NCBI GenBank assembly: GCA_033549025.1
Contig: JAWSUS010000017.1
Location: 1-64,000, forward strand
Direction: 5' to 3'
Length of the DNA stretch: 64,000 nt
Source: Desulfuromonadales bacterium
GTDB taxonomy: Bacteria > Desulfobacterota > Desulfuromonadia > Desulfuromonadales > SZUA-540
Shown here: positions 3,504-24,527 of the stretch, one piece after another
Position numbering within the stretch: position 1 is the stretch's first letter
Layout: each line of letters opens with the position of its first letter
Program-made: the position numbers and the translations under genes
Notes under the pieces: model-generated
The model's input: only the letters and a program-made list of their open reading frames with translations
Database searches by the model: none
Told to the model about the DNA's origin: nothing

Positions 3504-3520
3504 TTGGCATTGCCCTTGCT
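3504..3520 (+). promoter_or_regulatory. Sigma54 (-24/-12) promoter
   Basis: TTGGCATTGCCCTTGCT: GG-N10-GC with TGGCA/TTGC consensus, upstream of the OmcE-like gene. Confidence 0.8.
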
Positions 3521-4390: not shown

Positions 4391-4410
4391 ATTGCCGACT
4401 GCTGACTGCT

Positions 4411-4447
4411 GAAATGGGGGCCACTGGCTTTGGCCAGTGGCCCTTTC
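4411..4447 (+). terminator. Stem-loop / probable terminator after the OmcE-like gene
   Basis: GGGCCACTGGC-tttg-GCCAGTGGCCC followed by TTTC. Confidence 0.55.
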
Positions 4448-4584
4448 ACGTTAGTGCGCAGGTTTTACCCGTTGTTACGGTAAAAGACGTCATTTGTCGT
4501 GCAAATGACGGCCTCAGGATGTTGCTGGTCTTGTTGAAGGTATTGAAATTATTAAAAATAAAGAAGGCCTGATCGTTTATCCCC

Positions 4585-4601
4585 CGGGTATGAAGATTGC
4601 A
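4585..4601 (+). promoter_or_regulatory. Probable sigma54 promoter of the NHL/cytochrome/porin operon
   Basis: CGGGTATGAAGATTGCA (GG-N10-GC, TTGCA); perfect 9-bp inverted repeat ~80 bp upstream (4488-4510). Confidence 0.55.
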
Positions 4602-4650
4602 GCCTTCAATCTCTTGATTTGGACCACACCATCATGGGAGGCAACGCTAA

Positions 4651-5835: not shown

Positions 5836-5862
5836 TCGTGATTCCCTGGGCAGGATGGATAG

Positions 5863-6450
5863 ATGGCGAGCAAACATGACAACCGCTGGACCTGGATTTT
5901 TTTTCTGGTCGCTTCACTATGCTGTCTCGGGATGCTCTGTGGCTGCGATCCGGTTACGCGGCACAAGGTACTTTCTACGGTTTTCGATGGAGTGCCCGCG
6001 GCTCCCAATCCTGACGACATCTGTGTGGGTTATTTGGAAGCGGATAAAACAACCGCCGCTCAGGGGGAGGGACAAGGTTCGGCTGCGACCGGGTCAAACC
6101 ACAAGCCCTATACTGAAAAGCGCTGCAACGATTGCCACGCCCAGAGCAAAACCGAGAATAGCGGACTGATTCATCCCAGACAGGAACTCTGTTTCGTCTG
6201 CCACGACACGATCATTGCCGGAACCTTTGTGCATGGTCCGGTCGCTGTCGGTGATTGTCTTGCCTGCCATCTGCCCCACAGTTCGTCCAACCCTTTTCTC
6301 CTGAGGCAACAACCGGAAAAGATCTGCCAAAGCTGCCACCGTGAGGAACGACTGGCGGCCACCATGCATCGAAAGGTGTCCGACCGGTCGATGGCCTGTG
6401 GCGACTGTCATGACCCGCATTCTGGGCAGGCCCGTTATTTCCTCCGCTGA
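5863..6450 (+). CDS. Pentaheme cytochrome c lipoprotein
   Basis: Lipobox LCGC; 5 CxxCH (CNDCH, CFVCH, CLACH, CQSCH, CGDCH). Confidence 0.88.
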   Translation: MASKHDNRWTWIFFLVASLCCLGMLCGCDPVTRHKVLSTVFDGVPAAPNPDDICVGYLEADKTTAAQGEGQGSAATGSNHKPYTEKRCNDCHAQSKTENSGLIHPRQELCFVCHDTIIAGTFVHGPVAVGDCLACHLPHSSSNPFLLRQQPEKICQSCHREERLAATMHRKVSDRSMACGDCHDPHSGQARYFLR

Positions 6451-6490
6451 CGATTCCTCAGCGGCCATCACCTCCAAACCCGGTTTTTTC

Positions 6491-8518
6491 ATGCCTTTGA
6501 CGCCACGACGACATTGCCTCCAGAAAAAATACCGGGTTTTCCGGAGGATTTGCGCTGTGGTCGCTCTGTTTCTGATTCTTCCTTCGGGCGTCATGGCCCA
6601 GCCCAAGGCTCTCTTTCTATTGGGTGATTTCCGTTCATGGGGGGAGGCGGCCTATGAACTCAATGGGTATTCCCGCAGTTCGTCGGGAAGCCGCACGTAC
6701 AGTTCCGCCGATCACGACCTGGAAGAATCTTTTCATTTTGAGGGTCTTTACGGTCTGCTTGATCATCGCTGGTGGAGCGGGCGCTTTAGTGTGGATCTGG
6801 GCCTGGCCCAGACCCTCAGTCGCAGCGACGGGCGGGGGGATGATCGCGATTTGGAAGGGGTCCGGGGAGATTTTTACCTGGATGGTCGCCTGTTCGACAA
6901 ATCCCCGGCGCCGGCCAGCTTTCTGACCAGCTACGCTCAGGAGCGGGTTCTGGTCCCTTTTGGCCGAGATTATGACCGCACGGTGACCAGCAACAGCGTC
7001 GGTCTTCAATTGCATAACGATTATCTGCCGGCCAGCATTCTCTACCGAAGCAACGAAACGCAGACGGATGGGCTCTCTCTCGACCGTACCCAGACCGTCG
7101 AAGAAACGCGCTTCCAGGTCAGCCATCGTGTTTACAGTCTCAGCCAAAGTGGCTTTACCGCCAGTCGTATGAGAAACGCCACGACTTATGCCACCAGTCT
7201 GTCGGCCCTGGAAAGCGACAGTTACGAGGTGGCCGTCACGAATCAGCTCACTTTCGGAAATGTCGCCCGCCCACATACGCTGGATTCACGCTACCGCCTG
7301 AGCAGCGAAACCGGCAGCCGCCAGTCGGAACGTACGCTGTGGGAAGAGCGTCTGCGCCTGATACCAGGCAAGGCCCTGACGGTGACGGCCGCTCACACCC
7401 TGAACAGGGATGAGACCGAGGGACAACGTCGGGACCGGCAGCGGGAAGAATTCAGCCTGGAGCATCGGTTGTTTTCCAGTTTGGTGACAAGGGTTCAGGC
7501 CGACCTGGAAAAGCGAGAATACAATAATGGCGAAGAGCAGACCCGGGGAGGCGCTTTGAACCTGAGCTATACAAAGCAACTGCCCGGCGATAGTCGTCTC
7601 GGCCTGAACCTGGGTCGGCGGGTCGCCATGACGGATCGCGATCTTGCCAGTAATGAACTGACGGTGGTCGCTGAATCTCTCCTTGTTACAGATGGCCGCG
7701 ACTTTCTGGAACAAAACTTCATCGTGCCTTCGACGGTTAGGGTCTTCAGTGCCGACCGCCTTATCCTGTACCAGGAGGGGATCGATTTTGAACTTGAGGT
7801 CGTTGGCGCGCGCACCGAACTCCTTGTTCTTGACCTGGCCGCCATCCCCACGGGAACAGATCTGTCCGTCGATTATTCCTATAGGGTGGATCAGAGCATC
7901 GATTACACCACGACTACGGACAATCTGAGCTTCACCCTGAACACCTTGGGCAATACCTGGGAGATGAAAGTCAATTATGGTCGCAGCCGGCAGGAACCTG
8001 ACGGCCCTGATCCCGGCTCCCTGTATTTGAGTGATACCCGCTTCACCCTGGTTGGTATCGACCACAATTTCGACGGAGGCAGCGCCGGTGTTCACTATGA
8101 AGACATGCGCAGCGACTGGCAGAATCAGCAATCCATTGTCGGCAATCTCTTTCGCCGCCGCGACCTCTTTGCCGGTCAGTTGGCCTTGCGTCTGAAAAAT
8201 CAATATACTTTGACCGAGACCTTGCTGAAGAGTGCGGAGGGGGCCCCCGTCAGCCGGGATACCCGGCGAAATGTCCTGAGTTTGTCCGCTGACTTTGGTC
8301 GGGTTGTTCATCACAACGGCCGACTCAATCTGCGGGGGCTGGGCCGCGTCAGCCGGGGAGACGGTATCCACGAAGATAATCTGTCGGTGACTCTGGGATA
8401 CCAGTACTGGCTCGGCCGCATGGAGTTTCGCCTGCAGTCGGAGGTGGAGTGGATGTGGAGCGACGAGAGCCGCGAACGCAACGATTACCTCTATCTTTAT
8501 GTGCGCCGCTATTTCTGA
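6491..8518 (+). CDS. Large outer-membrane beta-barrel (porin-cytochrome conduit type)
   Basis: Signal peptide, many alternating polar/hydrophobic strands, C-terminal YLYVRRYF; start uncertain (ATG 6491 chosen). Confidence 0.7.
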   Translation: MPLTPRRHCLQKKYRVFRRICAVVALFLILPSGVMAQPKALFLLGDFRSWGEAAYELNGYSRSSSGSRTYSSADHDLEESFHFEGLYGLLDHRWWSGRFSVDLGLAQTLSRSDGRGDDRDLEGVRGDFYLDGRLFDKSPAPASFLTSYAQERVLVPFGRDYDRTVTSNSVGLQLHNDYLPASILYRSNETQTDGLSLDRTQTVEETRFQVSHRVYSLSQSGFTASRMRNATTYATSLSALESDSYEVAVTNQLTFGNVARPHTLDSRYRLSSETGSRQSERTLWEERLRLIPGKALTVTAAHTLNRDETEGQRRDRQREEFSLEHRLFSSLVTRVQADLEKREYNNGEEQTRGGALNLSYTKQLPGDSRLGLNLGRRVAMTDRDLASNELTVVAESLLVTDGRDFLEQNFIVPSTVRVFSADRLILYQEGIDFELEVVGARTELLVLDLAAIPTGTDLSVDYSYRVDQSIDYTTTTDNLSFTLNTLGNTWEMKVNYGRSRQEPDGPDPGSLYLSDTRFTLVGIDHNFDGGSAGVHYEDMRSDWQNQQSIVGNLFRRRDLFAGQLALRLKNQYTLTETLLKSAEGAPVSRDTRRNVLSLSADFGRVVHHNGRLNLRGLGRVSRGDGIHEDNLSVTLGYQYWLGRMEFRLQSEVEWMWSDESRERNDYLYLYVRRYF

Positions 8519-8535
8519 GAGGGTATAGGGATTTT

Positions 8536-9600
8536 ATGGCGACAACTCTTTCCTGCAGACGCGTTTGCTTTAGGTTGGTTCTTCTGTTGCTCATCGCCCT
8601 GATGCTGGGCGGCTGCGCTCTTCAACCGAAACCTGACCTGCCGCCGCAGAAACGATTGGTGTGGCCCGGCCCGCCGCTGCCCCCCAGAATTGAATACCTG
8701 GGAGAAATTCACTCATCCCTCGACGTCGTCGAACGGACAGGTTTTTGGCAGAAATTCAGGGATACCCTCTTCGGACAGGAGGAGACAGGCTTTCGCCGGC
8801 CTTACGGGGTGTCGGTGAAATCTGGCCATCAATTATGGGTGACCGACCCCGGGGCCGGACGACTCTATCGGGTCGATGTGACGGCAAAGACTTTTAGCGT
8901 GATCGGAGAAGGGCAGGGGCTCCTTTCACCCATCGGCATCACCGTGGACGATACCGGGCGCCTCTATGTTACCGATTCGGAAAAAGGGAGCATCTATGTG
9001 CTGGCGGAAGACGAAAGGATGCAGCCCCTCTTCTCCTTTGTGCTGCGTCGGCCGACCGGCATTGCCTTCAGCCCTCGCAATGGCTGGCTCTACGTATCGG
9101 AGACCGAAGCTCACCAGGTGGTAGCTTTTGACCGTGCCGGCATCGAACAGCTGCGTTTTGGCGGGCGTGGGGACGTGCCGGGCCGCTTCAATTATCCGAC
9201 GGATGTATGGATTGCCGACGGGCGCCTTTACGTCACCGACGCCCTCAATAGCCGCATTCAGGTCTTTTCGCTGGAAGGGCAGCTTATCACCTCCTTCGGT
9301 CGTGCGGGGGATACGGCCGGCAGCTTTGCCAAGCCCAAGGGGGTAGCCACCGACAGCGAAGGCCATATTTATGTGTGCGATGCCCTCTTTGACGCCGTGC
9401 AGATATTTGATGGGGACGGCCGGCTCTTGCTGGTCTTTGGCGAGAGCGGTGGCGGACCGGGGCAGTTCTGGATGCCGGCGGGAATCCACATTGACGGACA
9501 GGACCGGGTTTACGTGGTTGATGCCTACAACCGCAGAATCCAGATTTTTCAATATCTGAAAGAGCCTGTGGTCCAGAATCCGCAAAGGAGGTCCCCGTGA
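8536..9600 (+). CDS. NHL-repeat beta-propeller lipoprotein
   Basis: Lipobox LGGC; WPGPPLPPRIEYL; six NHL repeats (FxxPxGxxxD..G.IYV.D). Confidence 0.9.
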   Translation: MATTLSCRRVCFRLVLLLLIALMLGGCALQPKPDLPPQKRLVWPGPPLPPRIEYLGEIHSSLDVVERTGFWQKFRDTLFGQEETGFRRPYGVSVKSGHQLWVTDPGAGRLYRVDVTAKTFSVIGEGQGLLSPIGITVDDTGRLYVTDSEKGSIYVLAEDERMQPLFSFVLRRPTGIAFSPRNGWLYVSETEAHQVVAFDRAGIEQLRFGGRGDVPGRFNYPTDVWIADGRLYVTDALNSRIQVFSLEGQLITSFGRAGDTAGSFAKPKGVATDSEGHIYVCDALFDAVQIFDGDGRLLLVFGESGGGPGQFWMPAGIHIDGQDRVYVVDAYNRRIQIFQYLKEPVVQNPQRRSP

Positions 9601-11249
9601 AATCCTTCTATAGCCTGCTGACGCTGCTGGCGGTGCTGCTTCTGGCCCCTGAAACCGGGGTGGCCGACATTCTGGCGACCAAACACAATCTTTCCGTCAG
9701 CGGCCCGGGCACGATCAAGGCGACGTCGGAAGACCGCGTCTGCGTTTTCTGTCATACCCCGCACCACGCCAGCGATGTCACCCCGCTCTGGAACAGGCAG
9801 ATGAGCAGCTCCATCTACAACCTCTATGCCTCGACGACCCTGGTCTCCTCTCCCGGCCAGCCCACCGGAGGGGCGCGACTCTGCCTGAGCTGTCATGACG
9901 GCACCATCGCCGTGGGGATGCTTTTCGGTCGACCGGATCCGGTTCCTATGACCGGGGGGATCGGTACCCTGCCTCCCGGCGGCAGCAATCTCGGCACCGA
10001 TCTGGCCGATGACCATCCCATCTCTATGGCCTATACGTCGTCCTTGGCCACTGAAAGGGGAGAACTGGTCGATCCGGCGCTGCTGCCGGTGGAGATTCAC
10101 CTTGAAGACGGGATGATGCTGCAGTGCACCGCCTGCCACAATCCCCATAAAGACCCTTACGGCATGTTTCTGGTCATGGACAACACTTACTCGGGATTGT
10201 GCACAAGCTGTCATGCGAAGACAGGATGGAGCGCCGGCAGCCATGCCACTGACGCTGCCATGGCGGAGATGGGCTGCCAGAACTGCCATGCGTCCCATGG
10301 GGCCACTGGCTTCAGTCACCTTTTGCGGGGGACGACGGAGGAGGGCAATTGTCTGGCCAACTGCCACAATGGCAGCGGTTCCGGGGTCGATACCCAGCGC
10401 GTTTTCAATAAACTGTATGTTCATCCCGTTACGGCGACGGCCGGGATACACGACATCCGTGAAAATCCAGGAACCATGGGCAAGCATGTGGAATGCCAAG
10501 ATTGTCACAATCCTCATCAGCTGAACGCTCAGGCGGCCCCCTTGTCGGCGGCGCCGGCTGTTAACGGCCGCCTCCAAGGCGTCTCAGGGGTCAACGCCAG
10601 CGGGACGCCGGTCGAAGAAGCGGTATATGAGTACGAGGTCTGCTTCAAATGCCACGCCGACAACCAGTTCGTTTACACCGTCTCCGTGCCCCGCGTCATC
10701 CAGGAGAGCAACGAACGCTTGCGCTTCGATCTGGCCAATCCTTCCTATCACCCGGTGGTCGGCTTGGGCAAAAACAGCCATGTGCCCAGCCTCAGACCCG
10801 AGTGGAGCGAGGCGGACTCTATCTATTGCGTGGACTGCCATGCCAGTGACGACAGTCTTAGAGCTGGCGGGACAGGTGCCGAAGGCCCGCATGGCTCCAT
10901 CTATCCTCATCTGCTGCTGGCCCAGTATGAACAGGACAGTTATCCCATGCCCTATGCCGCCAGCAACTACGCTCTCTGCTTCCGCTGCCACGACCCGGAT
11001 GTCCTCTTTAATCCCGCCGTTTCCACCTTTGGCAACAGTCATGTATCCCATGTTCAGGTCAAGCAGGTTCCTTGCTCGGCCTGTCATGACCCGCACGGTG
11101 TGCCAGTCGCCAGGGGGGCGACAGATACAGCCAATGCGCATCTGATTAACTTCGACACCCGCTTTGTCGATCCCCTCACCGCCAGTTATGACTCCGTGGC
11201 GAGAACCTGCACGGTCAGTTGTCATGTAAGTAATCCCAAACAGTATTGA
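9597..11249 (+). CDS. Multiheme cytochrome c (~12 hemes) with N-terminal OmcE-like tetraheme module
   Basis: GTG start overlapping the upstream stop (GTGA); 10 CxxCH plus 2 CX3CH; TKHNLS...CVFCHTPH...PLWNR...NLGTDLADDHP. Confidence 0.9.
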   Translation: MKSFYSLLTLLAVLLLAPETGVADILATKHNLSVSGPGTIKATSEDRVCVFCHTPHHASDVTPLWNRQMSSSIYNLYASTTLVSSPGQPTGGARLCLSCHDGTIAVGMLFGRPDPVPMTGGIGTLPPGGSNLGTDLADDHPISMAYTSSLATERGELVDPALLPVEIHLEDGMMLQCTACHNPHKDPYGMFLVMDNTYSGLCTSCHAKTGWSAGSHATDAAMAEMGCQNCHASHGATGFSHLLRGTTEEGNCLANCHNGSGSGVDTQRVFNKLYVHPVTATAGIHDIRENPGTMGKHVECQDCHNPHQLNAQAAPLSAAPAVNGRLQGVSGVNASGTPVEEAVYEYEVCFKCHADNQFVYTVSVPRVIQESNERLRFDLANPSYHPVVGLGKNSHVPSLRPEWSEADSIYCVDCHASDDSLRAGGTGAEGPHGSIYPHLLLAQYEQDSYPMPYAASNYALCFRCHDPDVLFNPAVSTFGNSHVSHVQVKQVPCSACHDPHGVPVARGATDTANAHLINFDTRFVDPLTASYDSVARTCTVSCHVSNPKQY

Positions 11250-11479: not shown

Positions 11480-11660
11480 GAAATGGCTTCAAACGTTCGG
11501 CTCAAACTCTTTAAACAGTCAGACCCTCTTTATGGCGTTCCCCAAAAACCCATAAACCGGTCCCGGCCCATGGAGGTGCCCTCTCACAGAATAGTTCACT
11601 CGTATTGGACATAAAACGTGTACCAAATCCAACAAGTGATACTCAAGGAGAAGCATTAAA

Positions 11661-14600
11661 ATGATAAAGATTTTGAAAAGAGCGCGAACGTATCAGCTGG
11701 TGTTGTCCTCGCTGATGCTCTGTCTATTGGGGGCCGGCAGTGCCCTGGCCCTGGTTCATCCCGATGTCGTCCTGCGTGGACCAGGGGGCGAGTACATTGA
11801 TCTGAGTGCCGCCGGGGCGCAGCCCGCTTACAGCTCCCAGAACACCTGCGGCGGCTGCCACACCTATGCGAATATCGAGCAGCATTCCTATCATGTCCAG
11901 CTCGGGGCCAACCAGCAGATGGGTTGGGATATGTGGAACCCCGATTCCTCCAACACCTACAAATCCGGTGTGGCACCCAAAGGTAAGAACTGGGTGCAGA
12001 GCCCCGGCCACGTAGGCAAGTGGTGACCGCCCTCCGCTCGCCAGTTGGCGAGACTCTTCGAAGGCAACAGCGGTACCTCCAGCTACGATCCTCTTACGGG
12101 CAAATTTAATGAAGTCAATTCGCTGCTGAACAGTGCCGGCGAACTGATGAAACCCTTCAAGTATGCTGATCCGACCGACTTCGCTAAAAAAGTCGACCTG
12201 TCGCTGGCCGGCAACATGATGGACTGCGGCGAGTGTCACGTCGGCGGCGGCGCCATGCAGTATGTGCCTTACACCGTGTTGGGCGCACGCACCTCCCTGC
12301 GCGACATCAAGAACGTCAATGTCAACGGTTTCGCACCGATTAGCAAGACCGATATCACCGCCTTCAACTACTTCATCGATAACTACGACGTCGATGGCGA
12401 TGGCGACAAGAATGAAGTGATGCATATCGATTATGCCAATACAGGCGTGATGGAAGTCGACTGCTTCATGTGCCACCAGCAGGGCTACCAGTATGAGGAG
12501 CGCAATTCCGTGCTGCGCAAGGCCAAGATCGATGCCACCCGCGCGGTTGGCGCCGGCATCGCCATGGAGAACACCATGGTGTGGTCTCCAGCTGCAGATG
12601 AAGCCCCTGCCGGCTACGGCAACACCGTTGTTTATGACGCCTCAAAGCTGGCTGAGGATGTAAACGGCCATGCCATCATTCCTTCGAGCTTTTTCGCTAA
12701 TTTCGTCAAGCGTACGCCGGCTTCGGAAAACTGCGCTTCCTGTCATATGGGGGAATACGCCGTGGACTGGAAGAAGCGCGGCGACCATTGGGAAGGTGAG
12801 CACGATTACGAAGTGCATTACATGTACGGGTGCATGGGCTGCCACGAGCGTATGCCGACAGCCGCTCAGCCCGGTCCCTTCACCTCAGAGGACGGCGGAC
12901 TCTATCCTCAGATGGGAACGGGACTGCTCGGCCACGATCCGGCCAAGGGGAATGCCCCTTACAGTTCACTCTATAACGGCAACGACACCGCAGCGTTCAA
13001 GGGCTGTGAGGGGTGTCACCTGACCGGCACCAACGGCGCCGAACAGTTCGGCGCGCCCGATCCCACCGCGGCTCACCAGGCGGCCGGCCTGACCGCCCGT
13101 ATCGTACAGAGCGGTATAGACGGGGTCGCCAATATCAGTCACATCGACCTGATGGATTGCTCGGCCTGCCATAGCCGCAAAATCTCCAGCAGCGTGTGGA
13201 ACACCGGCGGCGCGGTGGTCGATGCCACGGGCGCCGACCCGGTCGGTCGTCTGGCCGATCATGAGAACCAATACGTCGACCGTAACAATATGACCGACCG
13301 TACCGGCCTGTCCTGGTACAACGGCAAACTGCTGCGCGTCGGTATCCTCAACACCATGTTCTACCGTGACAAGAACGACATCGACTTTGACGCCAACCTC
13401 GATGGCCGCGGTGGTGGCATGGATGCGCTACTCATGACCCAGGTGCTGGCCGTCAATGAGGCCAACGGCTGGAAATCCCTTACCGAAGACACCCATGGCA
13501 ACGTGACGGCGGCGGTGATCGATGCCCGTGTTGCCACCATGAACGCCGCGGTCGATGCCTGGGCCGGCGTTACCGGCAAGGCCCAGACTAAACTGTCCTT
13601 CATGGGGGTCCCCTTCAAGGATCAGCACAGCGTATCCCCCGCGGCGCTGGCCTGGGGCGCAAACGGCTGCGCCGACTGTCATGCCGCTGGTTCTGAGTTC
13701 TACCGTGGTGCCATGCGCATGGTCGGCGATGACATGACCATGTACTGGAACGATGACTTCGTCCCCTACACCAAAGCCAACGGCTCCACGCAACCCACGG
13801 ACTTTCACCCCAATACCAAGAACAAGGTCGCCAATCGCTCCATCGCCGTGACGGCGACTAACGGCACCCTCAGTCTGGACGCCGACGGGGATGGCACGCC
13901 GGAAAGCTACAAGACGGTGCGGGATGTGGACCGTTCCGAAGCTCTGTACGAAGGCACCTTCATGACCAATGCCGACTTTGCCGACTCTTACAGTTCAACG
14001 GGAGCGATCGGGTTTGCCGGGAACGAAAAAGGGTGGCTGCTGAAGGTTCAGGCCAAAGATACCGCAACGGGTGTCATCACCACCCGCACCCGGGCCGTTT
14101 CCGGCAACGTGGCCGATTTGACCGCTCTGCTGGCCAATCTGGGTGGCTTCGCTGCCGGTGATTTTGAATTCACCATTACAGAAAATGGGGCCGGGGGAAT
14201 CACCCTTACGGCGGATGCGGGGTACCAGATTCGACTGCATCCCCAGGCGGATTCGGGCAATTTTGTGATTGCCAATGCCCAGTGGAAAGCTGCTCCTGTC
14301 AAGGGCATCAACGGTGTCGATTACGCCGGTCGCGACGCTTGGCTCGCTTATCTGGACACTCTCAACAATGCGGCGGCCTTTGGTATCGGTGTGGATCCGG
14401 TGGCGGTTTTCTCGGCGCCGACCACCGAGGTTACGGTCAACACGGCCTTTGACTTCGTGGCCGACATCAGCGTCAACACTCAGGGAACCTTCGCCTACTC
14501 CTGGCTGATCAACGACGGTAACGGCACGACCCTGACCGGCGCTACCGCCAGCCACACCTTCACCACGACCGGCAGCTTCCTGGTGACGCTGTATGTCGAG

Positions 14601-14936
14601 GACGAGGAGGGCAAACGCGCCGCTGACTCCAAGTACGTCAAGGTTGTGGCGCCGGCCCCTGACACCACCATCAGCTACAGTCAGATTGCCGGTACCAATA
14701 GTGCGGAAGTCACCTTCGGCAACATGCCGACGCACACCCGCCTGCTGCTCTACTGGGGCGACGGGACCTACCAGTGGGTGACGAATTCCGACCCGAGTCT
14801 GACGGTGACCAAGGCCTTCCGGGCCGTATCGACCTACGACAAGGGAACCTACTACCAGTACCTGACCCGTGTCTATGTCTACAACGGCAGTTCCCGCGTC
14901 GACTACGAGACGGCCACGATCACGCTGAATAAATAA
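11661..14936 (+). CDS. Selenocysteine-containing octaheme cytochrome c (OTR-like) with C-terminal PKD domain; 1091 aa, Sec122 at TGA 12024-12026
   Basis: ORFs 11661-12026 and 12045-14936 are in the same frame with only TGA between them (GKW-U-PPSARQLAR); SECIS-like hairpin 12037-12052; 1+7 CxxCH; only the upstream part has a signal peptide and RBS; paralog has the same arrangement. Confidence 0.85.
12037..12052 (+). promoter_or_regulatory. Bacterial SECIS-like hairpin 1
   Basis: CTCGCC-AGTT-GGCGAG, starts 10 nt after TGA, G in second loop position. Confidence 0.8.
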
Positions 14937-14940
14937 CCAT
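14373..14940 (+). repeat. Direct repeat copy 1 (PKD plus C-terminal domain), ungapped match to 20978-21545
   Basis: Constant offset 6605; 9 differences in 187 aa; 14520-14647 identical to 21125-21252. Confidence 0.95.
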
Positions 14941-15018
14941 CAACCTCAATCCGGGTCCGGCTTGCGTCGGACCCGGACAGACACCATTATTTAATCCAGT
15001 TGTTATGTGTAAGAAATG

Positions 15019-15050
15019 AAAAAGCCCGGGAATGACCCCCGGGCTTTTTT
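15019..15050. terminator. Bidirectional terminator between convergent genes
   Basis: AAAAAGCCCGGG-aatgacc-CCCGGGCTTTTTT. Confidence 0.8.
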
Positions 15051-15076
15051 CTGTCGTTGTCCTGCCAAACCGCAAT

Positions 15077-15745
15077 TTACAGGGTTTCCAGGTCCACCAA
15101 TCCCAGTTTGACCGCATAGCGCACCAGCTCGACCCGGCTGTGAATATCCATCTTTTTCATGAGATTGGCCCGGTGATTCTCTGCTGTTTTGGGACTGAGC
15201 CCCAACTGCTCGGCAATGGCCTTGGTGGTGTGCCCTTCCACGATCAGACGCATGACCTGTTGTTCGCGGGGGGAGAGCAAGCTGTAGCGTTCGTCGCTGC
15301 CCGATTCCTTGCCGTCACCGGAAACGAGTTGCCCCACGACTTCCTGGGAGACGTTGCCATCCAGGTAGTATTCCCCTCGCAGCAGCGTATCCATGGCCTG
15401 TACCAGTTTGGCGCTGGTGGCTTCTTTGACCACGTAGCCGTGGGCGCCGGCTTTGAATGCCTCGGCCACATACTCAAAGCGGGGGTGCATGCTGAGCATG
15501 AGAATTTTAACGCCACCCTGATTTTGAGCGATGCCCCGCGCTGCCTCGATACCTGTCATGTCTGGCAGGGAAACATCCATGGTCACCAGATCCGGACGCA
15601 GATCCTGAGCCAGTCTGAGAGCATCCTGGCCGTTGCCAGCCTCACCGATGACCGTGTAACTGCCGGTACGGGCTATCAGACTTTTGAGCCCCTCGCGAAA
15701 AAGAGGGTGATCGTCAACCAGTAGAACGCGTTTCTTGGGAGTCAT
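15077..15745 (-). CDS. NarL/NreC-family response regulator (REC plus LuxR HTH)
   Basis: VLLVDDHPLFREG; LSPREQQVMRL...LGLSPKTAENHRANLMKK. Confidence 0.95.
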   Translation of the reverse strand: MTPKKRVLLVDDHPLFREGLKSLIARTGSYTVIGEAGNGQDALRLAQDLRPDLVTMDVSLPDMTGIEAARGIAQNQGGVKILMLSMHPRFEYVAEAFKAGAHGYVVKEATSAKLVQAMDTLLRGEYYLDGNVSQEVVGQLVSGDGKESGSDERYSLLSPREQQVMRLIVEGHTTKAIAEQLGLSPKTAENHRANLMKKMDIHSRVELVRYAVKLGLVDLETL

Positions 15746-15775
15746 GGAGTCGTCCTGTCAAGATAAGGGTTATGG

Positions 15776-17185
15776 TCAATTCCCCAGTACGGGAATTTCA
15801 ATCAGGATGCGGGTGCCCTTGCCGGGCGCCGAGACAACCTTGAACTTGCCGTTAAGGAGCTGCACTCGTTCATACATACCCACCAGACCGAGCTTGTTGC
15901 CGTTGTTGATCGGATTCATTTGATCTTCGATGGTAAATCCGACGCCATCATCCTCAATTCGTAAAAAAATGTCAGGGTGGGAAGCCGTCAGTCGCATGGT
16001 GACCTGTCTCGCGCCGGCGTGTTTTACCACATTATTCAAAGACTCTTGGATGATACGGTAAATATTGATTTCCACATCGCTGTTGAGCTGGATCTCCTTC
16101 AACCCTCCTGTCTTGAAGTCGATATTCAAGGAGTGCATTGCCCGGACCTTCTTGATGTGGTCGTGGATCGCGTCGACCAGTCCGAGACGCTCAAGTGAAG
16201 AAGGTCGCAACGCTCCTGACAGTTTGCGCACAGAGTTGATGGAGGAAAGAATGTGGGCGTTGATGGCGGCCAGTCGTTTCTGGGCAGTTTCGGGTTGCGA
16301 GACGATATCTTCGGCGAGGGTTTCCGCCGCCATTTTGACGGCATTGAGTCGCTGGCCCAGGTCGTCGTGCAGTTCCCGCGAAATAAATTTGCGCTCGTCT
16401 TCCTGAGCGTTCAGAAGACGATGGGAAAGGGCGCGTATGCGCTGTTCCGATTCTTTTCGGCTGGTTATGTCGCGAGCAACCGCCAGCTTGGCGGGCTTGT
16501 TGATTCCAGGCATCCGGATGCCCATTTCGATGACCGAATACCAGGCCTTGTTGGCCTGGTTGAAAAATTCCTTGTAGAGCGGTTCCCCAGACTTGAATAC
16601 ATCATCGCGGCTGCAGTCTTCACACGGGGAGTCTGAACCGCGGCACAGCTTGTGACACGGATCTGTGTCGATGTTCCCATGGCAGGATGCCAGCATTTTT
16701 TGGTTGGCGTAGATGATTTTGTGGTCATCACTTACCACGTAGACGCGATCCTCCATGGCATCAAGGAGCAGACGCAGGGTTTGTTGGGAGACCACCATGG
16801 CCTCGGCCATAATTTGGCAATCCGTCTGGTCCTTGAAGGTGCCGACAATAGCCGGCCTTCCGTTGTGGCTTACCTTTTTGGTTTCGATCTCCATCCAGAA
16901 AATCGAGCCGTCCGTCCGGGAGGACGGCTGCGCCCAGCCGGCGTGGGGGATGTCTTCGGCAATCATTTTGTCGTGCATGTCCCTAAAAAGGTCGAGGGTG
17001 CCGGAATCGGGATAGACCTCTGAAAACAGGTCGCGGTGGAGCAGGCTGTCCCGGTCAGAAAAACCGAAAATGTCGGCAAAGCGCTGATTGAGATAGATCA
17101 GCTTGTTGTCCTGACAGACATAGGTCCCCAGGGTGAGGTTTTCTGCGATGGTGGTGCCCAGGCTGGGCTCGGCTGCAATCTGCAT
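15776..17185 (-). CDS. Cytoplasmic PAS-PAS histidine kinase (HisKA_3)
   Basis: AQEDERKFISRELHDDLGQ H-box; IQESLNNVVKHA; DDGVGF; no TM segments; Cys cluster in second PAS. Confidence 0.92.
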   Translation of the reverse strand: MQIAAEPSLGTTIAENLTLGTYVCQDNKLIYLNQRFADIFGFSDRDSLLHRDLFSEVYPDSGTLDLFRDMHDKMIAEDIPHAGWAQPSSRTDGSIFWMEIETKKVSHNGRPAIVGTFKDQTDCQIMAEAMVVSQQTLRLLLDAMEDRVYVVSDDHKIIYANQKMLASCHGNIDTDPCHKLCRGSDSPCEDCSRDDVFKSGEPLYKEFFNQANKAWYSVIEMGIRMPGINKPAKLAVARDITSRKESEQRIRALSHRLLNAQEDERKFISRELHDDLGQRLNAVKMAAETLAEDIVSQPETAQKRLAAINAHILSSINSVRKLSGALRPSSLERLGLVDAIHDHIKKVRAMHSLNIDFKTGGLKEIQLNSDVEINIYRIIQESLNNVVKHAGARQVTMRLTASHPDIFLRIEDDGVGFTIEDQMNPINNGNKLGLVGMYERVQLLNGKFKVVSAPGKGTRILIEIPVLGN

Positions 17186-17547
17186 GGTTTTCTGATCTCC
17201 TGCTGGGGGTGCGCTTTTCTGGGGAGGTACGGCTCGTGATCAAGAGCATCCAGGGCCAGACATTGTCTTATGGTCATTTACCCATATCTGGTTATATGAC
17301 CATCTCGCCCCTCTTTTTCACTGGGGTGCCGATCCTCAACCTTCATTTTGTAAAAGCCCCAAGTCTATGAGGGAAAGCCCTCGTTGAGTCTGGGGGGTAC
17401 GCCTCAGAATGAAAAAATATTTTCTAAAAACTGAGGCGATTGCTCTTTGAGGCCGTTCATATACTTTCTTTAATATCAATAAGATAGAATTTTCTTATTG
17501 TTTGCGTCTCATCCCGGGGCCGTTTATGGCCTGGGCCGCTCAGCTGC

Positions 17548-17564
17548 TTGGTATCGTGGTTGCT
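17548..17564 (+). promoter_or_regulatory. Sigma54 promoter of selenocytochrome 2
   Basis: TTGGTATCGTGGTTGCT (TGG-N10-GC, TTGCT). Confidence 0.75.
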
Positions 17565-17743
17565 ATACAGGATGTCAGCTCTTTTCTCTCATTCCTATGC
17601 AAACCGCTTGCCCAGCCTGGGTGATCCCCAAAATCAGCTGGTGAGGCCAGTGGAGAAAGGAAGGCCAAAGCCATTTCGGTTTTTCGTTTGAATGCATTCA
17701 CATTGGTGTGGAACTAACAAATGATGAAGAAAGGATAGACGCA

Positions 17744-20700
17744 ATGAAGAGGAGGAGTTTCAAAAGATGGGTGCTGGGGGGGGCGCTGGCGGCTGCCGGC
17801 CTGACCCTGAGTGCCGGTCTGGCGTTTGCCGCGCATCCGCCGGTGACGCTTTACACCTACGAAGAGTTGGCCATGCAGTATGGCATGGACAAGATGCCGG
17901 TCCAGGTTGATCCCAATAACCTGCGCGGCTTCCCCTACAGCCCCAAGCAAACCTGCGGGGGCTGTCACGAATACAATAAGATCTCCGACCATGCCTTCCA
18001 CGCCGCCCTGGGTATGCACGAGTGGCAGGACACGGCGGATGGCGAGTTCAAAATTGATGATCCCAATGTCATCAAACCCTGGGTTCAATCTGGGGCCATG
18101 TGGGGTAAGTGGTGAAGTCCCTCTCTTCGCCAGGTGGCGAACTTCATGGATCAGGACCCCGCAACACCCGCAGTTGATGACAAGTATTATACGGAACAGG
18201 AATTTTTGGCCCAAACCGACCTGACCACTTGGGACATGGCGGTTTACTGTGGTACCTGCCACGTCGGCGGCGGCTTCGGTGAAAAAGACCGCAACGGTGT
18301 GCGCCTCTCAATGAAAAATCCAGCCGGCGGCATGGACCCTGGCGCGGCCGGATACTCTGAGGCAACGCCTTTCAATGCCTACAACCACTATGTGTTCGAG
18401 TTGTTCACCAAGGATACGGGCCTGCCGCAGCATATGGTCGGCCAGGCTCCCTGGGCCTACCCGGTCTATGAGGGCGGCCAACCGGTGACCGCCCCTTCTG
18501 GCTGGGGACAGGCGATGACCATGACCCTGCCCGACGGTTCCTCTATGCCTGTGGCCGACGGTCAGCTCATGATGCCGAACGTCAAGGAGATGGACTGCCT
18601 CTACTGCCACTTCAAAGGCTACAATAATCTCATGGCCTCGGTGATGACCTACAGCGGCGCCCACAATGCGGCCCCCATGGCCGGTTCGGGCCTGATGGAC
18701 ACCAATAGCCTCAGCCCCACCTACCAGGGCTATACCGTCGATGCCGGTAATGGCAAGACCCTGATGGGTGCCCCGGCTATGGTCACCATGGACGCAAACG
18801 GCATCGTCAGCCTGAGCGATTATGCCCTGGGCAACCTGCAGGGCAACCCGGACGAGGCCAACTGCCGTCAGTGTCATGCGCCCAGCTCCCTGGAAGATTT
18901 GCCGGACATGATGCGGGATTTCCTCTCGTCGGCCCCCATGGTCTATACCGGCAACTTCTCCCAGTCCTTTACCGGACTGGCCATGCCGTCCTTCGACTTT
19001 AACGCCCCCTTCGGCAACACCTGGAACTGGACGGAAGCCCCCCTGGGAGCGCCCTATCCGCCGGGTCTGGCCTATCCGACCTCGGGGAAAATTACTGTCG
19101 GCGACGTGATGGCTGGCATGGGGATCATCGGCGGCAACTGGGCCTACATCCCCTCCATCGGCTTCCCGGCCGCCATGGGGCCCACGGTCTACAACACGGG
19201 CATCTTCCCCTTTGGCCCCAACGGCATGCCGGCAGCCGAACTGCTGGATCCCTACGATCCGGCCACCTTCGACTGGTCCGATCCTAACGCCATGCAGATT
19301 CTGATGGCCAAAGAGATCGGTGGCGGCAATCCGGCGGGTACCGGACCTCTCTATTTCGAGGCGCCCCTGCTTGACGCCAGCGGCAACCCAACCGGCTTCA
19401 TGGACCAGAACGCTCTGAAGAAAGGCATCGTGCCTTTCCCCCGCGCCGAGTGGTTCAAGCGTGGCGATCTCTTCGGCAACGCCCAGCAGGAGGTTCACCT
19501 GGCCATGGGCTGCGCAGGCTGCCACATGGACACCAACACCACCAAGATCGACCAGTATGATGCCGATGGCAACATCGTCTTTGACGGCAAGAGCCAGTGC
19601 GACCCCGGTCGCGGTTTCGATGCGGCCAGCGGCGTTGAAAACGGTACGGTGGTCGACGACGTGACGTTCGACTCCAACAACACGGTGAAAAAGTGCGCCG
19701 ACTGTCATGTCACCGGCAAAAACTCCGATGGCATTGCCATCAACACCTTTGGCGCGCCTGATCCTACGGCCGCTCACCAAGCCGCCGGTTTGACCGCCAA
19801 CCTGGTGCAGGCTGTCGGGCCGCAGGGTCTTGTGCCTGGCAACCACCTGGACATCATCGACTGTACGGTCTGCCATGTTTACAAAAAACAGATGGCCGTG
19901 CGCCTGCTCGATTCCACCTCTGGTCATCGTTTCCCGACCATGGTGGGCTTCGACGAGTCCCAGGGCATGCTGGGCATGTTCGACGATCCCTTCGGCATGG
20001 GCATGCCGGCCGGCAGCAATGCCGCCGAATGGCAGCCTCTTTATGTCTGGCAGAAACAAGGGATGTCCGATCAGAACAGCGATCCGAACTGGCGTCGGAA
20101 GATCATGCAGATCAACATGATTACCGCCACGCTGTGGAACAATATCGATTCCACCGTGGATGCCAACGGCGACGGTCAGACCGGGCGTCATGCTTTGACT
20201 TACGACCCCGCCACGGACCCGGCCTACACCGGCATGGTGCAGAAAACCTACTATGATCCCTGGATTCAGCGTGACCTCAAGGCCGGTCTGAACTTCGGTC
20301 CCAGCGGTTTCGCGCCTATCCCGGTTGGTTTCGGCGGCGGCGATTATCAGTCGGCCTATGCGCCGGATGGAACGTTCACCGGTGCCTGGCAGTATGTCGG
20401 TGTCTACGGCGGCAACATCATGTTCTCCACGCCGGAAGAAATCGAAGCCTACAAGGCCTACCGCAATGCCATCGCCCCTGCCGTTGACGGCAAGGATTGG
20501 ACCGACACCGAGCTGCTGCTCGGCGGCGCTCCTTTCATGATCACCCACAACGTACGCAGCACCGATCAGTTCGTGCTGGGCAAAAACTGCAGCGATTGTC
20601 ATGCTGCCGGCAAGGGCTTCTTTGATGGTGGCTTCAACATGACCGGTACCGCCATCAAGGCGACCGCCGGCGGTCAGTTCATGGCCTCCGCCGCAGAGGA

Positions 20701-21541
20701 GATGGTTGTTGTCGCCAAGGCGACTGACCTGACCACGGCCGCTGAGATTGGGACCAAAGACGGTGTTGCCCTGGAAGTTCCCTTCGAAGAGCTGGGCGAC
20801 TGGGATGCTGCCACCAAGACCTTTACGCCGAATCCGACCGGAGCCTACAAGCGGGTGACGGATCTGGACCGCAGCGTGGCTCTTTATCCGGCTGAAGCGT
20901 CCTACACCGCGGCTGACGGCACCACCTATGCCAGCCGTGCCGACTGGGTTGCCTACCTGAATACCCTCAGCAACCCGGCGGCCTTCGGTCTCGGCGTGGA
21001 TCCTGTGGCCGTCTTTTCGGCGCCGACCACCGAGGTTACGGTCAATACGGCCTTTGACTTTGTGGCCGACACCAGTGTCAATACTCAGGGAACCTTCGCC
21101 TACTCCTGGCTGATCAACGACGGCAACGGCACGACCCTGACCGGCGCTACCGCCAGCCACACCTTCACCACGACCGGCAGCTTCCTGGTGACGCTGTATG
21201 TCGAGGACGAGGAGGGCAAACGCGCCGCTGACTCCAAGTACGTCAAGGTTGTAGCGCCGGCCCCTGACACCACCATCAGCTACAGTCAGATTGCCGGTAC
21301 CAATAGTGCGGAAGTCACCTTCGGCAACATGCCGACCCACACCCGCCTGCTGCTCTACTGGGGCGACGGGACCTACCAGTGGGTGACGGATGATCAGACG
21401 GATCTGACGGTGACCAAGGCGTTCCGGGCCGTGTCGACCTATGACAAGGGGACCTACTACCAGTACCTGACCCGTGTCTATGTCTACAACGGCAGCACCC
21501 GCGTCGACTACAAGACCGCCACGATCACGCTGAATAAATAA
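17744..21541 (+). CDS. Selenocysteine-containing octaheme cytochrome c (OTR-like) with C-terminal PKD domain, paralog 2; 1265 aa, Sec124 at TGA 18113-18115
   Basis: Same-frame ORFs separated only by TGA (GKW-U-SPSLRQVANF); SECIS-like hairpin 18126-18141; 1+7 CxxCH; ATG 17744 after AAAGGA; signal peptide ending AFA. Confidence 0.85.
18126..18141 (+). promoter_or_regulatory. Bacterial SECIS-like hairpin 2
   Basis: TTCGCC-AGGT-GGCGAA, 10 nt after TGA; terminal pair T-A versus C-G in paralog (compensatory). Confidence 0.8.
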
Positions 21542-21545
21542 CCAT
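20978..21545 (+). repeat. Direct repeat copy 2 (PKD plus C-terminal domain)
   Basis: Near-identical to 14373-14940. Confidence 0.95.
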
Positions 21546-21775
21546 TAACCCTGACCGGGCCCGGCTTGCGCCGGGCCCGCTAAATGCCTGTAACTGTCGT
21601 GCAATGACGATGCGCCCGGATCCAATTCCGGGCTTTTTTCCTGAGACGGCCACTGCTGGTTTGGAACGACTGCAATGGAATGGTTTTTGTATATCATTCA
21701 CGACAAAATCGTCATGGCTTTTTCGCTGTGTGTTCTGTCGCGTGATGTCCCTTTTTCCACTTTGAGTAGGGTTCT

Positions 21776-22618
21776 ATGAAATGGTTTGTCTGCCTCCTGC
21801 TGCTTGGATTCGGGGTTCTGCTTCCGGCGGTCGGGCAGAGCGCCAGCCAAAAAGGTGAATTCAGCGGGAGTCTCACGGCTGGCGGGTATTTCCCTGATGG
21901 CGGCCGCCATGCAGGCGATTCGGTTCTTTATGGAATCAAGCTGGGCTATACATTGCCCGGACGCTCTCTTGTTCAAACGCTGGCCCTGGAGGTTGACTTC
22001 TCGCGGATGGAGGTTCGTGCCGACACAGACAGCGACCAGGGGCATGGTGGGCGTCTCGATGTCCTCTACTCTTTGCGTCAGGGGGGCGATTTTTGTCCCT
22101 TTCTGGCTTTGGGGGCGGGAGTGCTCGATCCCCCTGGTTCTATGGGGGCTGATTTTGTCGTGGCTTACGGGGGAGGGGCTGTTTATCGGCTCAGCCCTTT
22201 GTTCGGTCTGCGGACCGATGTGCGGCATCTTCTGCCCATGACAACGGACCGCTACAATGATTTTACGGCCACCGCCGGGGTGGCGATTCGCTTAAGCGGT
22301 TCGCCGGCTGAACAAAAGCGACTCCCCAAAGACGCCGACAAGGATGGCGTACCGGATGGCCGGGATCGCTGCCCCGATACGCCACGTACTCTTACGGTGG
22401 ATCGCCACGGATGTCCGGATAATCCGCCCGACAGCGATGCCGATGGTGTCGCGGATTATCTCGACAGTTGTCCTGATACGCCCAAAGGCGCTTCCGTCGA
22501 TGCGAAAGGCTGCCTGAAAGACACCGATCGTGATGGTGTCCCCGATACAGAGGATAAGTGTCCGGATAATCCCCCAGGTTTGCCTGTCGACGAGCGTGGC
22601 TGTGTTCGCCTCGACTGA
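21776..22618 (+). CDS. OmpA/OprF-type 8-stranded beta-barrel with thrombospondin type-3-like repeats, no C-terminal peptidoglycan-binding domain
   Basis: Signal peptide, barrel strands, three DxDxDGVxDxxDxCPxxP...VDxxGC repeats, then stop. Confidence 0.8.
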   Translation: MKWFVCLLLLGFGVLLPAVGQSASQKGEFSGSLTAGGYFPDGGRHAGDSVLYGIKLGYTLPGRSLVQTLALEVDFSRMEVRADTDSDQGHGGRLDVLYSLRQGGDFCPFLALGAGVLDPPGSMGADFVVAYGGGAVYRLSPLFGLRTDVRHLLPMTTDRYNDFTATAGVAIRLSGSPAEQKRLPKDADKDGVPDGRDRCPDTPRTLTVDRHGCPDNPPDSDADGVADYLDSCPDTPKGASVDAKGCLKDTDRDGVPDTEDKCPDNPPGLPVDERGCVRLD

Positions 22619-22637
22619 AACGATTCGTCCTTAACCG

Positions 22638-23468
22638 GTGGCTCCCGATGCGGATGGTTCAGTGTCTAAGTTGAAACGTTACCGCCTGATTCTGATGCTC
22701 TGCACTACCGGGGTGCTGCTGCTGGTTTCCTTTCTGTGGGGAAGAGGGCAGGTGCATGACTTTACGAACCGCTGCGAATCCTGTCATCTGACGTTCACTG
22801 ATGACGGAATGCCTGGCAAATATACCCGGAATATCGATTTCCTCTGCATCGAGTGCCATCGCGTGTCCGCGGCGTATTCCCACCCCACCGGCATGGTTCC
22901 ATCATTCGATGTGCCCGCTGAACTGTCTCTGGACTGGTCGGGACGCATGACCTGTGCAACCTGCCATGATCCTCATGGTGAACAGGTCATGGGAGGGGGC
23001 GACCTGCTGCGGACGAAATACCGGGGTAAGCTTTTCTGCCAGCAATGCCACAATTACGCTTTGCCGGCCGAAGGGCGGCACGGCGGCACCGGGGGGCGGG
23101 CTCACTTTGGCGGCGAAACGTCCACCGATCCGGGGAGATGGTCCCGACTCCTTGATGCGGTATCCGCCGAATGTCTGGCCTGTCATGACGGGGTGGTCGC
23201 TTCGGCCACTTCCTATCGGGTTGGGGAGGAAGACGAGTCGATAACCTACAGTCAGCGGAAGCTCTCGCATCCCATCGGTATCGATTATGGCCGGGCCGCG
23301 ATGCGGGACCGGGAGTTGCGGTCGCCAGAGGCCCTGGCGCCTTATGTCACACTTTTTGAAGGCAAAATCGGCTGTGGCTCTTGCCATAATGTCTTTTCCC
23401 GGGAGAAAAATCTTTTGGTGGTCAACGACAGAGGCAGTTCTCTCTGTTTTGAATGCCATATCAAATGA
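22638..23468 (+). CDS. Heptaheme cytochrome c
   Basis: N-terminal hydrophobic segment; 7 CxxCH; SHP...CxxCH units; start uncertain. Confidence 0.88.
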   Translation: MAPDADGSVSKLKRYRLILMLCTTGVLLLVSFLWGRGQVHDFTNRCESCHLTFTDDGMPGKYTRNIDFLCIECHRVSAAYSHPTGMVPSFDVPAELSLDWSGRMTCATCHDPHGEQVMGGGDLLRTKYRGKLFCQQCHNYALPAEGRHGGTGGRAHFGGETSTDPGRWSRLLDAVSAECLACHDGVVASATSYRVGEEDESITYSQRKLSHPIGIDYGRAAMRDRELRSPEALAPYVTLFEGKIGCGSCHNVFSREKNLLVVNDRGSSLCFECHIK

Positions 23469-23501
23469 TTCAGAGCGCTCTTCATCGGATTGGAGTTGTT
23501 T

Positions 23502-24527
23502 ATGTCCTTCAGTTATCTCAATGCGTTAAAATGTCTGCTGATTATTGGTTTTTTTCTGCTGTTTACTTCCCAGACTGTCATGGGAGACGAGAGTGTGGTC
23601 GCCAGAGTCGGAGGCATTCCGATTACCACTTTCGAGCTTAAACGGCAGGTCAGTCGCATTCTGCCCCTGAATTCCAGTTATCATGGCGGCGTTTCCCGAG
23701 AAAAGCTCGAAGAAATCGAGGAAAAAGCTTTGGGCGAACTGATTGAGCAGGCCATGAAGGTCCGTTACGCTTTGGATAATGAAATCGTGGTTTCATCGGC
23801 GGAACTGGAGGCGCGCCTTCAACCGGTCTGGGAAAAATTTCCGACGCCAGAATTGCTTGGCGAGGCCTTGCAGGGAGAGAGCGTGTCGGCCTTGCGGGCC
23901 TCTGTGTACCGGGGATTGATCGCTAAAAAAGCTGAGAAGGTCGCCATTGCCCAGCAGGTCAATGTGCCGGAGGCAGAGGTCAAGGACTTTTATCAGACCA
24001 ACAGCCAGCGTTTTTTCAGACCCCGCATGTTTCGGGCCAGCCAGATCTTTATCAAGGTTGATCCGCGGCTGACCCCGGAGCAGAAACGCCCTTTTCTGGA
24101 GAAGGCTCGAGATCTTGCGGAGCGGGGCAAGGCCGGTGAAGATTTTTACAATCTGGCTTACTACAACTCCGATGATGAAAAGCGCTACGTGGGAGGGGAT
24201 CTGGGGTTCTTTCACGAAGGCCAGCTAATCGCCGATATTGAAAGGGCAGTCGTCCAGATGCAGGACGGCGAAGTCTCCGACCCGGTCGAATCGATTTACG
24301 GCTACCATGTTCTCAAGCTTGTGGAGATCAAGGACCCTGTACAACTTTCCTACGATGAAAAAAAAGACGATATCCGCCGCGAACTGGAGCAGCAGAGATA
24401 CGAAACCCTGTATGCGGCCTGGATGACTGCTCTGCGCGATGCCTGCAAGGTGGAAAGAATCGAGAAGCCTGTGGCTTCAGTCCCGGAAATTCAAGGCCCA
24501 GAGGAAAAGAAGACCCGTTCTTTGTGA
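23502..24527 (+). CDS. SurA/PrsA-like parvulin (PpiC) peptidyl-prolyl isomerase
   Basis: VVARVGG.PIT; ASQIFIK...GEDFYNLA..NSDD...GGDLGF...GEVSDPVES.YGYHVLK; RBS GGAG. Confidence 0.9.
   Translation: MSFSYLNALKCLLIIGFFLLFTSQTVMGDESVVARVGGIPITTFELKRQVSRILPLNSSYHGGVSREKLEEIEEKALGELIEQAMKVRYALDNEIVVSSAELEARLQPVWEKFPTPELLGEALQGESVSALRASVYRGLIAKKAEKVAIAQQVNVPEAEVKDFYQTNSQRFFRPRMFRASQIFIKVDPRLTPEQKRPFLEKARDLAERGKAGEDFYNLAYYNSDDEKRYVGGDLGFFHEGQLIADIERAVVQMQDGEVSDPVESIYGYHVLKLVEIKDPVQLSYDEKKDDIRRELEQQRYETLYAAWMTALRDACKVERIEKPVASVPEIQGPEEKKTRSL

Follow-up and report, generated by a model that had tools for sequence, protein, structure and literature searches.

Why would two loci of one genome each place a short open reading frame (ORF), closed by TGA, immediately ahead of a large multiheme ORF in the same frame? 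The question is raised by a window of 64,000 nucleotides from a Desulfuromonadales bacterium (GenBank assembly GCA_033549025.1, contig JAWSUS010000017.1, positions 1 to 64,000 of the forward strand, on which the features below lie unless stated otherwise). ORF 11661-12026 (121 amino acids, aa) and ORF 17708/17744-18115 each carry a single CxxCH heme c motif and end in Gly-Lys-Trp (GKW) before the TGA, beyond which the frame stays open through a 963-aa ORF in the first locus (gene 1) and an 1135-aa ORF in the second (gene 2), with seven CxxCH motifs each. An initial annotation had read the two loci as seleno-octaheme cytochromes. We find that the internal TGA is almost certainly a selenocysteine (Sec) codon, judging from comparative evidence, and that each locus is, on the same grounds, one gene for a predicted exported octaheme c-type cytochrome of ~119 or ~138 kDa. 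By analogy, and with a probability of roughly 0.5, we propose that these proteins may act as surface reductases that use Sec and heme 2 on sulfur-sulfur or related substrates at the outer end of an electron conduit.

Gene 1 (type 1; 11661..14936), with its TGA (12024..12026) translated as Sec (U), yields a protein of 1091 aa (P0001) with U122 and a putative signal peptide at ~aa 1-30, and gene 2 (type 2; 17744..21541; TGA at 18113..18115) one of 1265 aa (P0002) with U124. Each has a single recoded codon and a set of eight CxxCH motifs, spread over 11847..13682 (the heme core, which resembles octaheme tetrathionate reductase, OTR) and 17954..20602, followed by an Ig-like PKD domain (aa 912-993, 14394..14639, and aa 1086-1167, 20999..21244, respectively), and the frames reach 14936 and 21541. 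Re-reading both frames thus reproduced the coordinates, motifs (GKW-TGA, 1 + 7 CxxCH) and lengths (~1091 and ~1265 aa) first reported. The starts at ATG 11661 and ATG 17744 are preceded by AAGGAG/AAGGA, the former a Shine-Dalgarno (SD)-like element visible in the sequence at 11645..11650, and the N-termini that they open are signal peptide-like as judged by eye; the alternative downstream starts, TTG 12045 and GTG 18134, lack an SD, lie inside a hairpin and open no signal peptide, as had been claimed.

The codon at the recoded site was followed across homologs. A search with P0001 residues 30-700 returned 105 proteins, almost all of which begin just past the Sec position, consistent with the earlier claim that annotation pipelines split such genes. 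Geobacter sulfurreducens AAR36619.1 (P0108) is a family member cut at the same point, and a G035 locus identical to it at 563 of 564 positions over the compared stretch possesses both the upstream heme motif and the TGA. The few full-length homologs are natural fusions with Cys (P0067, P0105) or Asp (P0004, P0005) at the site, which upholds the one-gene reading. In a first pass, 56 GTDB loci gave 61 sites in 63 rows (two rows had no site), comprising 58 TGA, 2 GAT (one gene twice) and 1 TGT. A wider pass over the GTDB loci, family loci from further genome searches and the window gave 77 de-duplicated long-form sites, with TGA at 70 and sense codons at seven (2 Cys, 4 Ser, 1 Asp); TAA, TAG and TGG occurred at none of the 77, though the search pattern permitted them, so that the homolog check suggested at the outset came out in favor of recoding. 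These site counts are not independent, because many come from related Geomonas genomes, and the pattern overlooked some type-2 genes (e.g., in L016, L019 and L057). Counting all aligned relatives, Cys occupies the site in P0067, P0105, P0159, P0160, P0164, P0168, P0170, L035 and L018. Named carriers include Desulfuromonas, Geobacter, Malonomonas, Desulfocapsa, Desulfurivibrio and Dissulfurirhabdus. In Malonomonas rubra (L005/L034) at least four type-1 paralogs stand in tandem, three with TGA and one with Asp, and a third paralog type in Geomonas (L031, L033, L038, L051) has Ser at the Sec site and Lys five residues before it.

Downstream of each TGA lies a hairpin resembling a selenocysteine insertion sequence (SECIS), at 12037..12052 in gene 1 (6-bp stem and AGUU loop, +14 to +29 from the U of UGA) and at 18126..18141 in gene 2 (AGGU loop). 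Across 56 aligned TGA sites (52 distinct), the 6-bp stem at +14..+29 with its 4-nt loop is paired in 90.4% of cells, against 30-67% in slid control registers, and 21 compensatory cells were counted where shuffles gave 4.7 ± 1.7, none of 500 shuffles reaching that number; two of the five measures were not above shuffles. Synonymous codons following the TGA are close to fixed, with Leu at +7 written TTG in 55/55 cases (background 7%), Ala at +8 GCG in 61/64 (background 14%) and Arg at +9 AGA in 39/51 (background 7%). Stem pairs average 5.54 in the 70 TGA genes versus 3.29 in the seven sense-codon genes, where the Asp gene (6 pairs) and one Cys gene (5 pairs) are exceptions. The Malonomonas rubra Asp copy retains a complete hairpin in which CTG replaces TTG. 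Single-sequence folding found the hairpins no more stable than shuffles (z -1.13 to +0.69 in four folds), and in-frame adjacency was dropped as an argument, the genome holding 120 in-frame ORF pairs (at least 100 aa open, then at least 600 aa) separated by TGA (59), TAG (38) or TAA (23). The case for recoding is therefore built on the 70/77 TGA sites, the hairpin covariation and the synonymous-codon fixation, which exceed chance, whereas adjacency and single folds do not. SelB-tRNA(Sec), directed by the coding-region hairpin just 3' of the UGA, would then place Sec between heme motifs 1 and 2.

The genome carries the corresponding machinery, all four sel genes that the initial annotation had proposed to look for being present: tRNA-Sec(TCA) (selC) on C3, and selA, selB and selD, above their cut-offs, on C5, with selD itself containing an in-frame TGA. 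It also encodes ExtKL/MccSep with one TGA (on C4) and two canonical OTRs; a genome search with the OTR model TIGR04315 matched at three other loci and at neither window gene. A divergent OTR-like cytochrome (G000:C2:240543-241748, L062) falls under the TIGR04315 cut-off and combines a KRGD motif with N-terminal D/C-rich repeats. Co-occurrence with selA was set aside as non-discriminating: selA is found in 28/28 carrier genomes but in 185/201 overall, and in 10/10 genomes tested for the short form described below, seven of them without TGA in the short-form gene. Contigs from public RNA libraries cover both genes, and one of them (X1 record 5, 17588-18162) spans the second TGA; they were not used as evidence because DNA carry-over is possible. 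A promoter scan was uninformative (7 sites versus 4.4 ± 2.3 expected).

That no recoding takes place at all is very improbable. The TGA might be a true stop, so that a small protein with one heme and a large one with seven would be translated independently, the latter through re-initiation 18 nt downstream. Codon +7 is indeed TTG, GTG or ATG, a possible start, in 63 of the 70 TGA sites, databases annotate the genes in this way, and the available text of PMC4070692 states typical signal peptides for all seven cytochromes of a corresponding G. sulfurreducens cluster. Yet codon +7 is TTT, GCG or TGG in the other 7/70, no SD accompanies it, its third base belongs to the covarying stem, the site is never TAA or TAG, and natural Cys, Asp and Ser fusions exist. 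Moreover, heme c attachment requires a signal peptide, and the downstream ORFs, P0108 included, begin without one. We regard re-initiation as highly improbable. Pseudogenes, sequencing errors or a UGA read as Trp are hardly credible. A few homologous loci are frameshifted (L021, G182:C5), decay and sequencing error not being told apart there, but TGA stands at one codon in 70/77 long-form and 20/30 short-form sites, and TGA terminates many ordinary ORFs in the host genome; UGA as Trp and pseudogenization were rejected on the conserved TGA site, the lack of TGG and the tRNA-Sec in the genome.

To which proteins, then, are these selenocytochromes related? NCBIfam 20.0 and Pfam scans of both returned only PKD and generic heme models. 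TIGR04315 did not match P0001 or P0002 (cut-off 375 bits), NF040886 (ExtKL/MccSep) gave no match and BLAST against ExtKL a best E of 0.017, and NF041027 (GSU2204 family CXXCH (seleno)protein) gave none in the NCBIfam scans; among 26 members, TIGR04315 matched 7 weakly (best E 2.4e-10), as did TIGR04314, the MmcA model (7/26, best E 7.7e-14). With such matches absent or weak, membership of ExtKL, GSU2204, MmcA or canonical OTR was rejected. Hidden Markov model searches against PDB sequences returned isolated heme motifs and PKD domains, and nothing else. HHalign against OTRs, on the other hand, reached probabilities of 96-98% (E 3e-9 to 7e-13) over hemes 4-7. An AlphaFold2 model of the heme core (predicted local distance difference test, pLDDT, 72; predicted TM-score 0.76) had OTR structure 1SP3 as its sole Foldseek match at E ≤ 1e-3 and its sole VIA match above Z 5 (Z 8.4, 309 aligned, root-mean-square deviation 4.2; next Z 3.2), while the fold search with a full-length model matched only Ig-domain proteins. 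The modelled heme core is thus distantly related to OTR, the only clear structural match; the seleno-octaheme reading stands, with the nearest structural relative shifted from ExtKL to OTR.

The neighborhood of heme 2, which is invariant in the family alignment (A3), is of particular interest. In OTR, Lys56 is the heme-2 ligand (PMC3769277) and a Cys, numbered Cys64 here, is among the catalytic-site features (bioRxiv 2023.04.20.537704; here and below, sources are cited for the accessible parts of their text). The residue five positions before Sec is His in 69, Met in 4 and Lys in 4 of the 77 long forms, including His117 in gene 1 (12009..12011), a candidate heme-2 axial ligand, and Met119 in gene 2 (18098..18100). 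All three are usual heme ligands, and by analogy this residue may bind the heme-2 iron, perhaps as the equivalent of OTR Lys56. Canonical OTRs themselves include forms with TGA at the position of catalytic Cys64 (NNF/Y-U; 10 of 28 sites after removal of three spurious pattern matches; L098, L107, L110-L113, L115, L116, L118 and L120), and several of these also show a W-C-R-C context right before heme 2. In the available part of PMC13188914, Sec-type TIGR04315 members are listed as "GenBank annotated" (WP_331457571.1), the latter probably of the NNFU type. Elsewhere in the core, the residue ahead of DP-x-K/R-G is His425 in P0001 and Cys619 in P0002 (24 His and 35 Cys in type 1, 7 Cys in type 2), a pattern that suggests a His/Cys ligand swap at another heme. 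The heme-1 motif is often non-canonical, from CX3CH to CX12CH (L022, L023, L027, L031, L033, L038, L049, L052 and others), so that heme counters miss it; Desulfobulbaceae-type members (L012-L014, L020, L024, L029, L036, L045 and others) add a ninth CxxCH after the core, and other relatives reach 13-20 hemes through N-terminal extensions (P0105, P0164, P0167).

The family forms part of a wider group, a profile search recovering 622 cluster representatives at E ≤ 1e-3. Among them is a shorter group of 600-900 aa, some members of which carry a cytochrome b fusion (in P0198, TIGR01583 scores above its cut-off), and whose profile matches 70 of the 401 phylum genomes searched, in part by way of long forms. 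The best 30 short-form loci have TGA at the same site in 20, where the same hairpin follows, and a sense codon in 10, with mean hairpin pairs of 5.65 and 3.2, respectively; in the short OTR-like octahemes L128-L149 the hairpin is moved by 6 nt where a 2-aa insertion is present. A quick tree search on 348 of 1123 columns, with L064 standing in for its duplicate, window gene 1, placed type 1, type 2, a type 3 with Ser or Cys, the short group and OTR apart from one another, and nested the Cys and Asp forms within the type-1 TGA forms.

The two paralogs differ in their cores and resemble each other in their tails. Heme cores in the window are ~21% identical, whereas the last 656 nt of DNA, at 14322..14975 and 20927..21579 and, in gene 1, including the stop codon and a downstream hairpin, are 91.5% identical. 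In ten within-genome type-1/type-2 pairs (the window, L016, L017, L022, L023, L025, L027, L123, L125/L126 and L127) the cores are 18-23% and the last 170 aa 46-95% identical, at least 77% in nine, compared with a median tail identity of 28% for same-type genes between genomes (331 pairs). The simplest reading of these sequences would be that gene conversion has acted repeatedly on the PKD tail and the terminator, and selection for a shared docking partner may lie behind the identity.

The genes are set in a cytochrome cluster. Upstream (321..11249), we find a sigma-54 regulator, cytochromes with 13, 4, 5 and 10 CxxCH motifs, two NHL-type beta-propellers and a 725-aa ORF; between the paralogs, on the reverse strand (15077..17185), a NarL/LuxR-type response regulator and a PAS histidine kinase that are often conserved in homologous loci; and downstream (21776..24527), an outer-membrane beta-barrel/TSP3 protein, a 7-CxxCH cytochrome and a PrsA/SurA-type peptidyl-prolyl isomerase, the last recurring in 10 of 23 homologous loci. 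Neighbor genes recur in 6 to 12 of those 23 (flanks of up to 8 kb). The conserved 725-aa ORF (6341-8518, C-terminal Phe) has no Pfam or NCBIfam match; its Atlas result (Porin_4 on 33% of members at rank 25, score 0.89, with many unnamed clusters at 0.99) is a weak lead that it is possibly the outer-membrane barrel of the conduit. The order of seven cytochromes and two two-component systems is the same in the GSU3216-3233 cluster of G. sulfurreducens, a correspondence by gene order and not by accession. According to the available text of Kato et al. (PMC4070692), the seven cytochromes are induced by hematite and magnetite (GSU3228 by 8.09x and 3.33x) and are described as separate, ordinary cytochromes, with no Sec in that text; the cluster is also induced in an ihfA-1 mutant, together with GSU2937 (PMC7962754). 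Further neighbors were seen at related loci. In G019 (L123:5306-17507) the two genes are followed immediately, in the same orientation, by selA, a rhodanese gene and an HgdD/BcrAD-type pair; in G035 (L125:712-6903) a 2063-aa subtilase with CARDB repeats, which the window lacks, sits inside the cytochrome cluster and parallels the subtilase processing of OmcZ; and in one Desulfuromusa genome (L008:139-6355) the gene follows what its sequence suggests is a PilM/N/O-secretin-pseudopilin-like secretion cluster.

We therefore return to what the proteins might do. In the mechanism that we favor, heme 2 would be the catalytic heme, as in OTR, with Sec replacing the active-site Cys64; the selenolate would attack the S-S bond of a polysulfide or polythionate, or a related oxyanion, with electrons supplied through the other seven hemes. 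The upstream genes for multiheme cytochromes, beta-propellers and a putative barrel would supply an electron conduit; the two proteins would stand at its outer end, where near-identical tails could dock both paralogs onto a common surface partner or export route. The link to sulfur is drawn because of the sulfur-associated carriers, the rhodanese neighbor in G019 and the polysulfide catalysis of MccSep, in which Sec beside a His/Cys heme is the reducing site (PMC13510729), and the link to the surface because of the PKD tails, the conserved cytochrome cluster and the tail homogenization. Several observations weigh against it. The VIA score of 8.4 is not far from what common arrangements give; profile comparison of the heme 1-2 segment with OTR aligned only the heme-2 motif, global mode mis-registering the hemes, and pLDDT is below 50 around Sec, so that the equivalence of Sec and Cys64 can be put forward only conditionally. 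Some members have Asp or Ser at the site; the short subfamily has Met, Gln or Asn at the aligned -5 position, its Gln and Asn weakening the ligand proposal; the family is present in 28 of 201 Desulfuromonadia genomes; the host is already equipped with MccSep and two OTRs; and the only expression data located for the corresponding cluster of G. sulfurreducens point to iron oxides rather than sulfur.

Those iron oxide data also belong to a different proposal, in which Sec is real and ligates or tunes heme 2 of a non-catalytic conduit, or of a terminal reductase for iron minerals or electrodes, in the manner of MmcA, an OTR relative turned conduit that has lost both heme 2 and its Lys (bioRxiv 2023.04.20.537704). 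The shared gene order with the hematite- and magnetite-induced cluster, the PKD tails, the subtilase gene in the G035 cluster and the tolerance of Asp or Ser speak for it; on the other side, the GSU mapping is by gene order alone, heme 2 and the adjacent Sec or Cys are kept where MmcA lost its counterparts, and costly Sec recoding is maintained in three deep subfamilies. Maintained Sec recoding is usually a mark of catalysis. We regard the conduit or mineral-reductase role as somewhat unlikely. Rather more improbable is a periplasmic OTR-like reductase of nitrite, hydroxylamine or tetrathionate whose PKD tail is simply a spacer or oligomerization module: the OTR fold, the substrates described for OTR (tetrathionate, nitrite and hydroxylamine; bioRxiv 2023.04.20.537704) and the short relatives fused to cytochrome b (P0198) would suit it, but the long forms have no membrane anchor, lie within a cytochrome/propeller/barrel cluster and lack the Lys-NNFC motif of OTR as such. 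A more speculative extension of the surface reductase, which we consider unlikely, would be a large and so far overlooked OTR-fold selenoprotein radiation in Desulfobacterota, comprising two long surface types and a short one that have a single SECIS in common, with Sec bound to or positioned on the heme-2 iron of an extracellular enzyme and tails kept plug-compatible by gene conversion.

We found no description of the family in the literature searched, in which subscription journals were outside coverage (PMC13194489 and PMC12545173 added nothing in their available parts). It is missing from the table of 119 prokaryotic selenoprotein families in the accessible text of PMC13188914, where ExtKL, GSU2204 and TIGR04315 octahemes are listed; the available part of PMC1914089 reports ExtKL alone among such proteins, the main text of PMC12013277 and PMC13326102, as far as accessible, has no cytochrome entry, and a 2024 survey (PMC11492766) entered two truncated members as "No ID". 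On sequence grounds, then, the family appears to be an unnamed, widespread Sec-bearing branch of the OTR superfamily. If so, current lists of multiheme proteins in Geobacter, Desulfuromonas and related bacteria are wrongly annotated, and what has been studied as 7-heme fragments lacking a signal peptide are 8-heme selenoproteins that cells need selenium to make. Genetically tractable G. sulfurreducens would allow a direct test, and the proteins would open a way into the physiological role of the OTR fold, which is still cryptic. Should Sec sit on the heme-2 iron outside the cell, respiratory conduits would be linked to sulfur or mineral chemistry by an extracellular selenoenzyme that possesses a natural Se-heme site.

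How the family stands relative to known systems can now be summarized. With OTR (Shewanella oneidensis SO4144, PDB 1SP3, TIGR04315) it has in common eight colinear c-heme motifs and a Cys or Sec between hemes 1 and 2. However, the K...NNFC motif is absent as such, Sec lies 45-130 residues ahead of heme 2 rather than 10, KKRGD stands where OTR has VKHGD, the proteins are 2.5-3 times longer and carry a PKD tail, and they form a separate long-branch clade in the tree. MmcA of Methanosarcina (TIGR04314) likewise has an OTR-related core, but lacks the OTR heme 2 and Lys, whereas the family keeps heme 2 with Sec beside it. MccSep/ExtKL (GSU2937-2936; NF040886), from the same organisms, is likewise an exported selenoprotein with several c-type hemes that is concealed by a split into two ORFs; it has no homology to the family, binds five hemes instead of eight, and carries its Sec in a C-terminal Ig domain and not between hemes 1 and 2. 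The proteins described here would add to MccSep and Sec-containing OTR a third type of protein that pairs Sec with heme.

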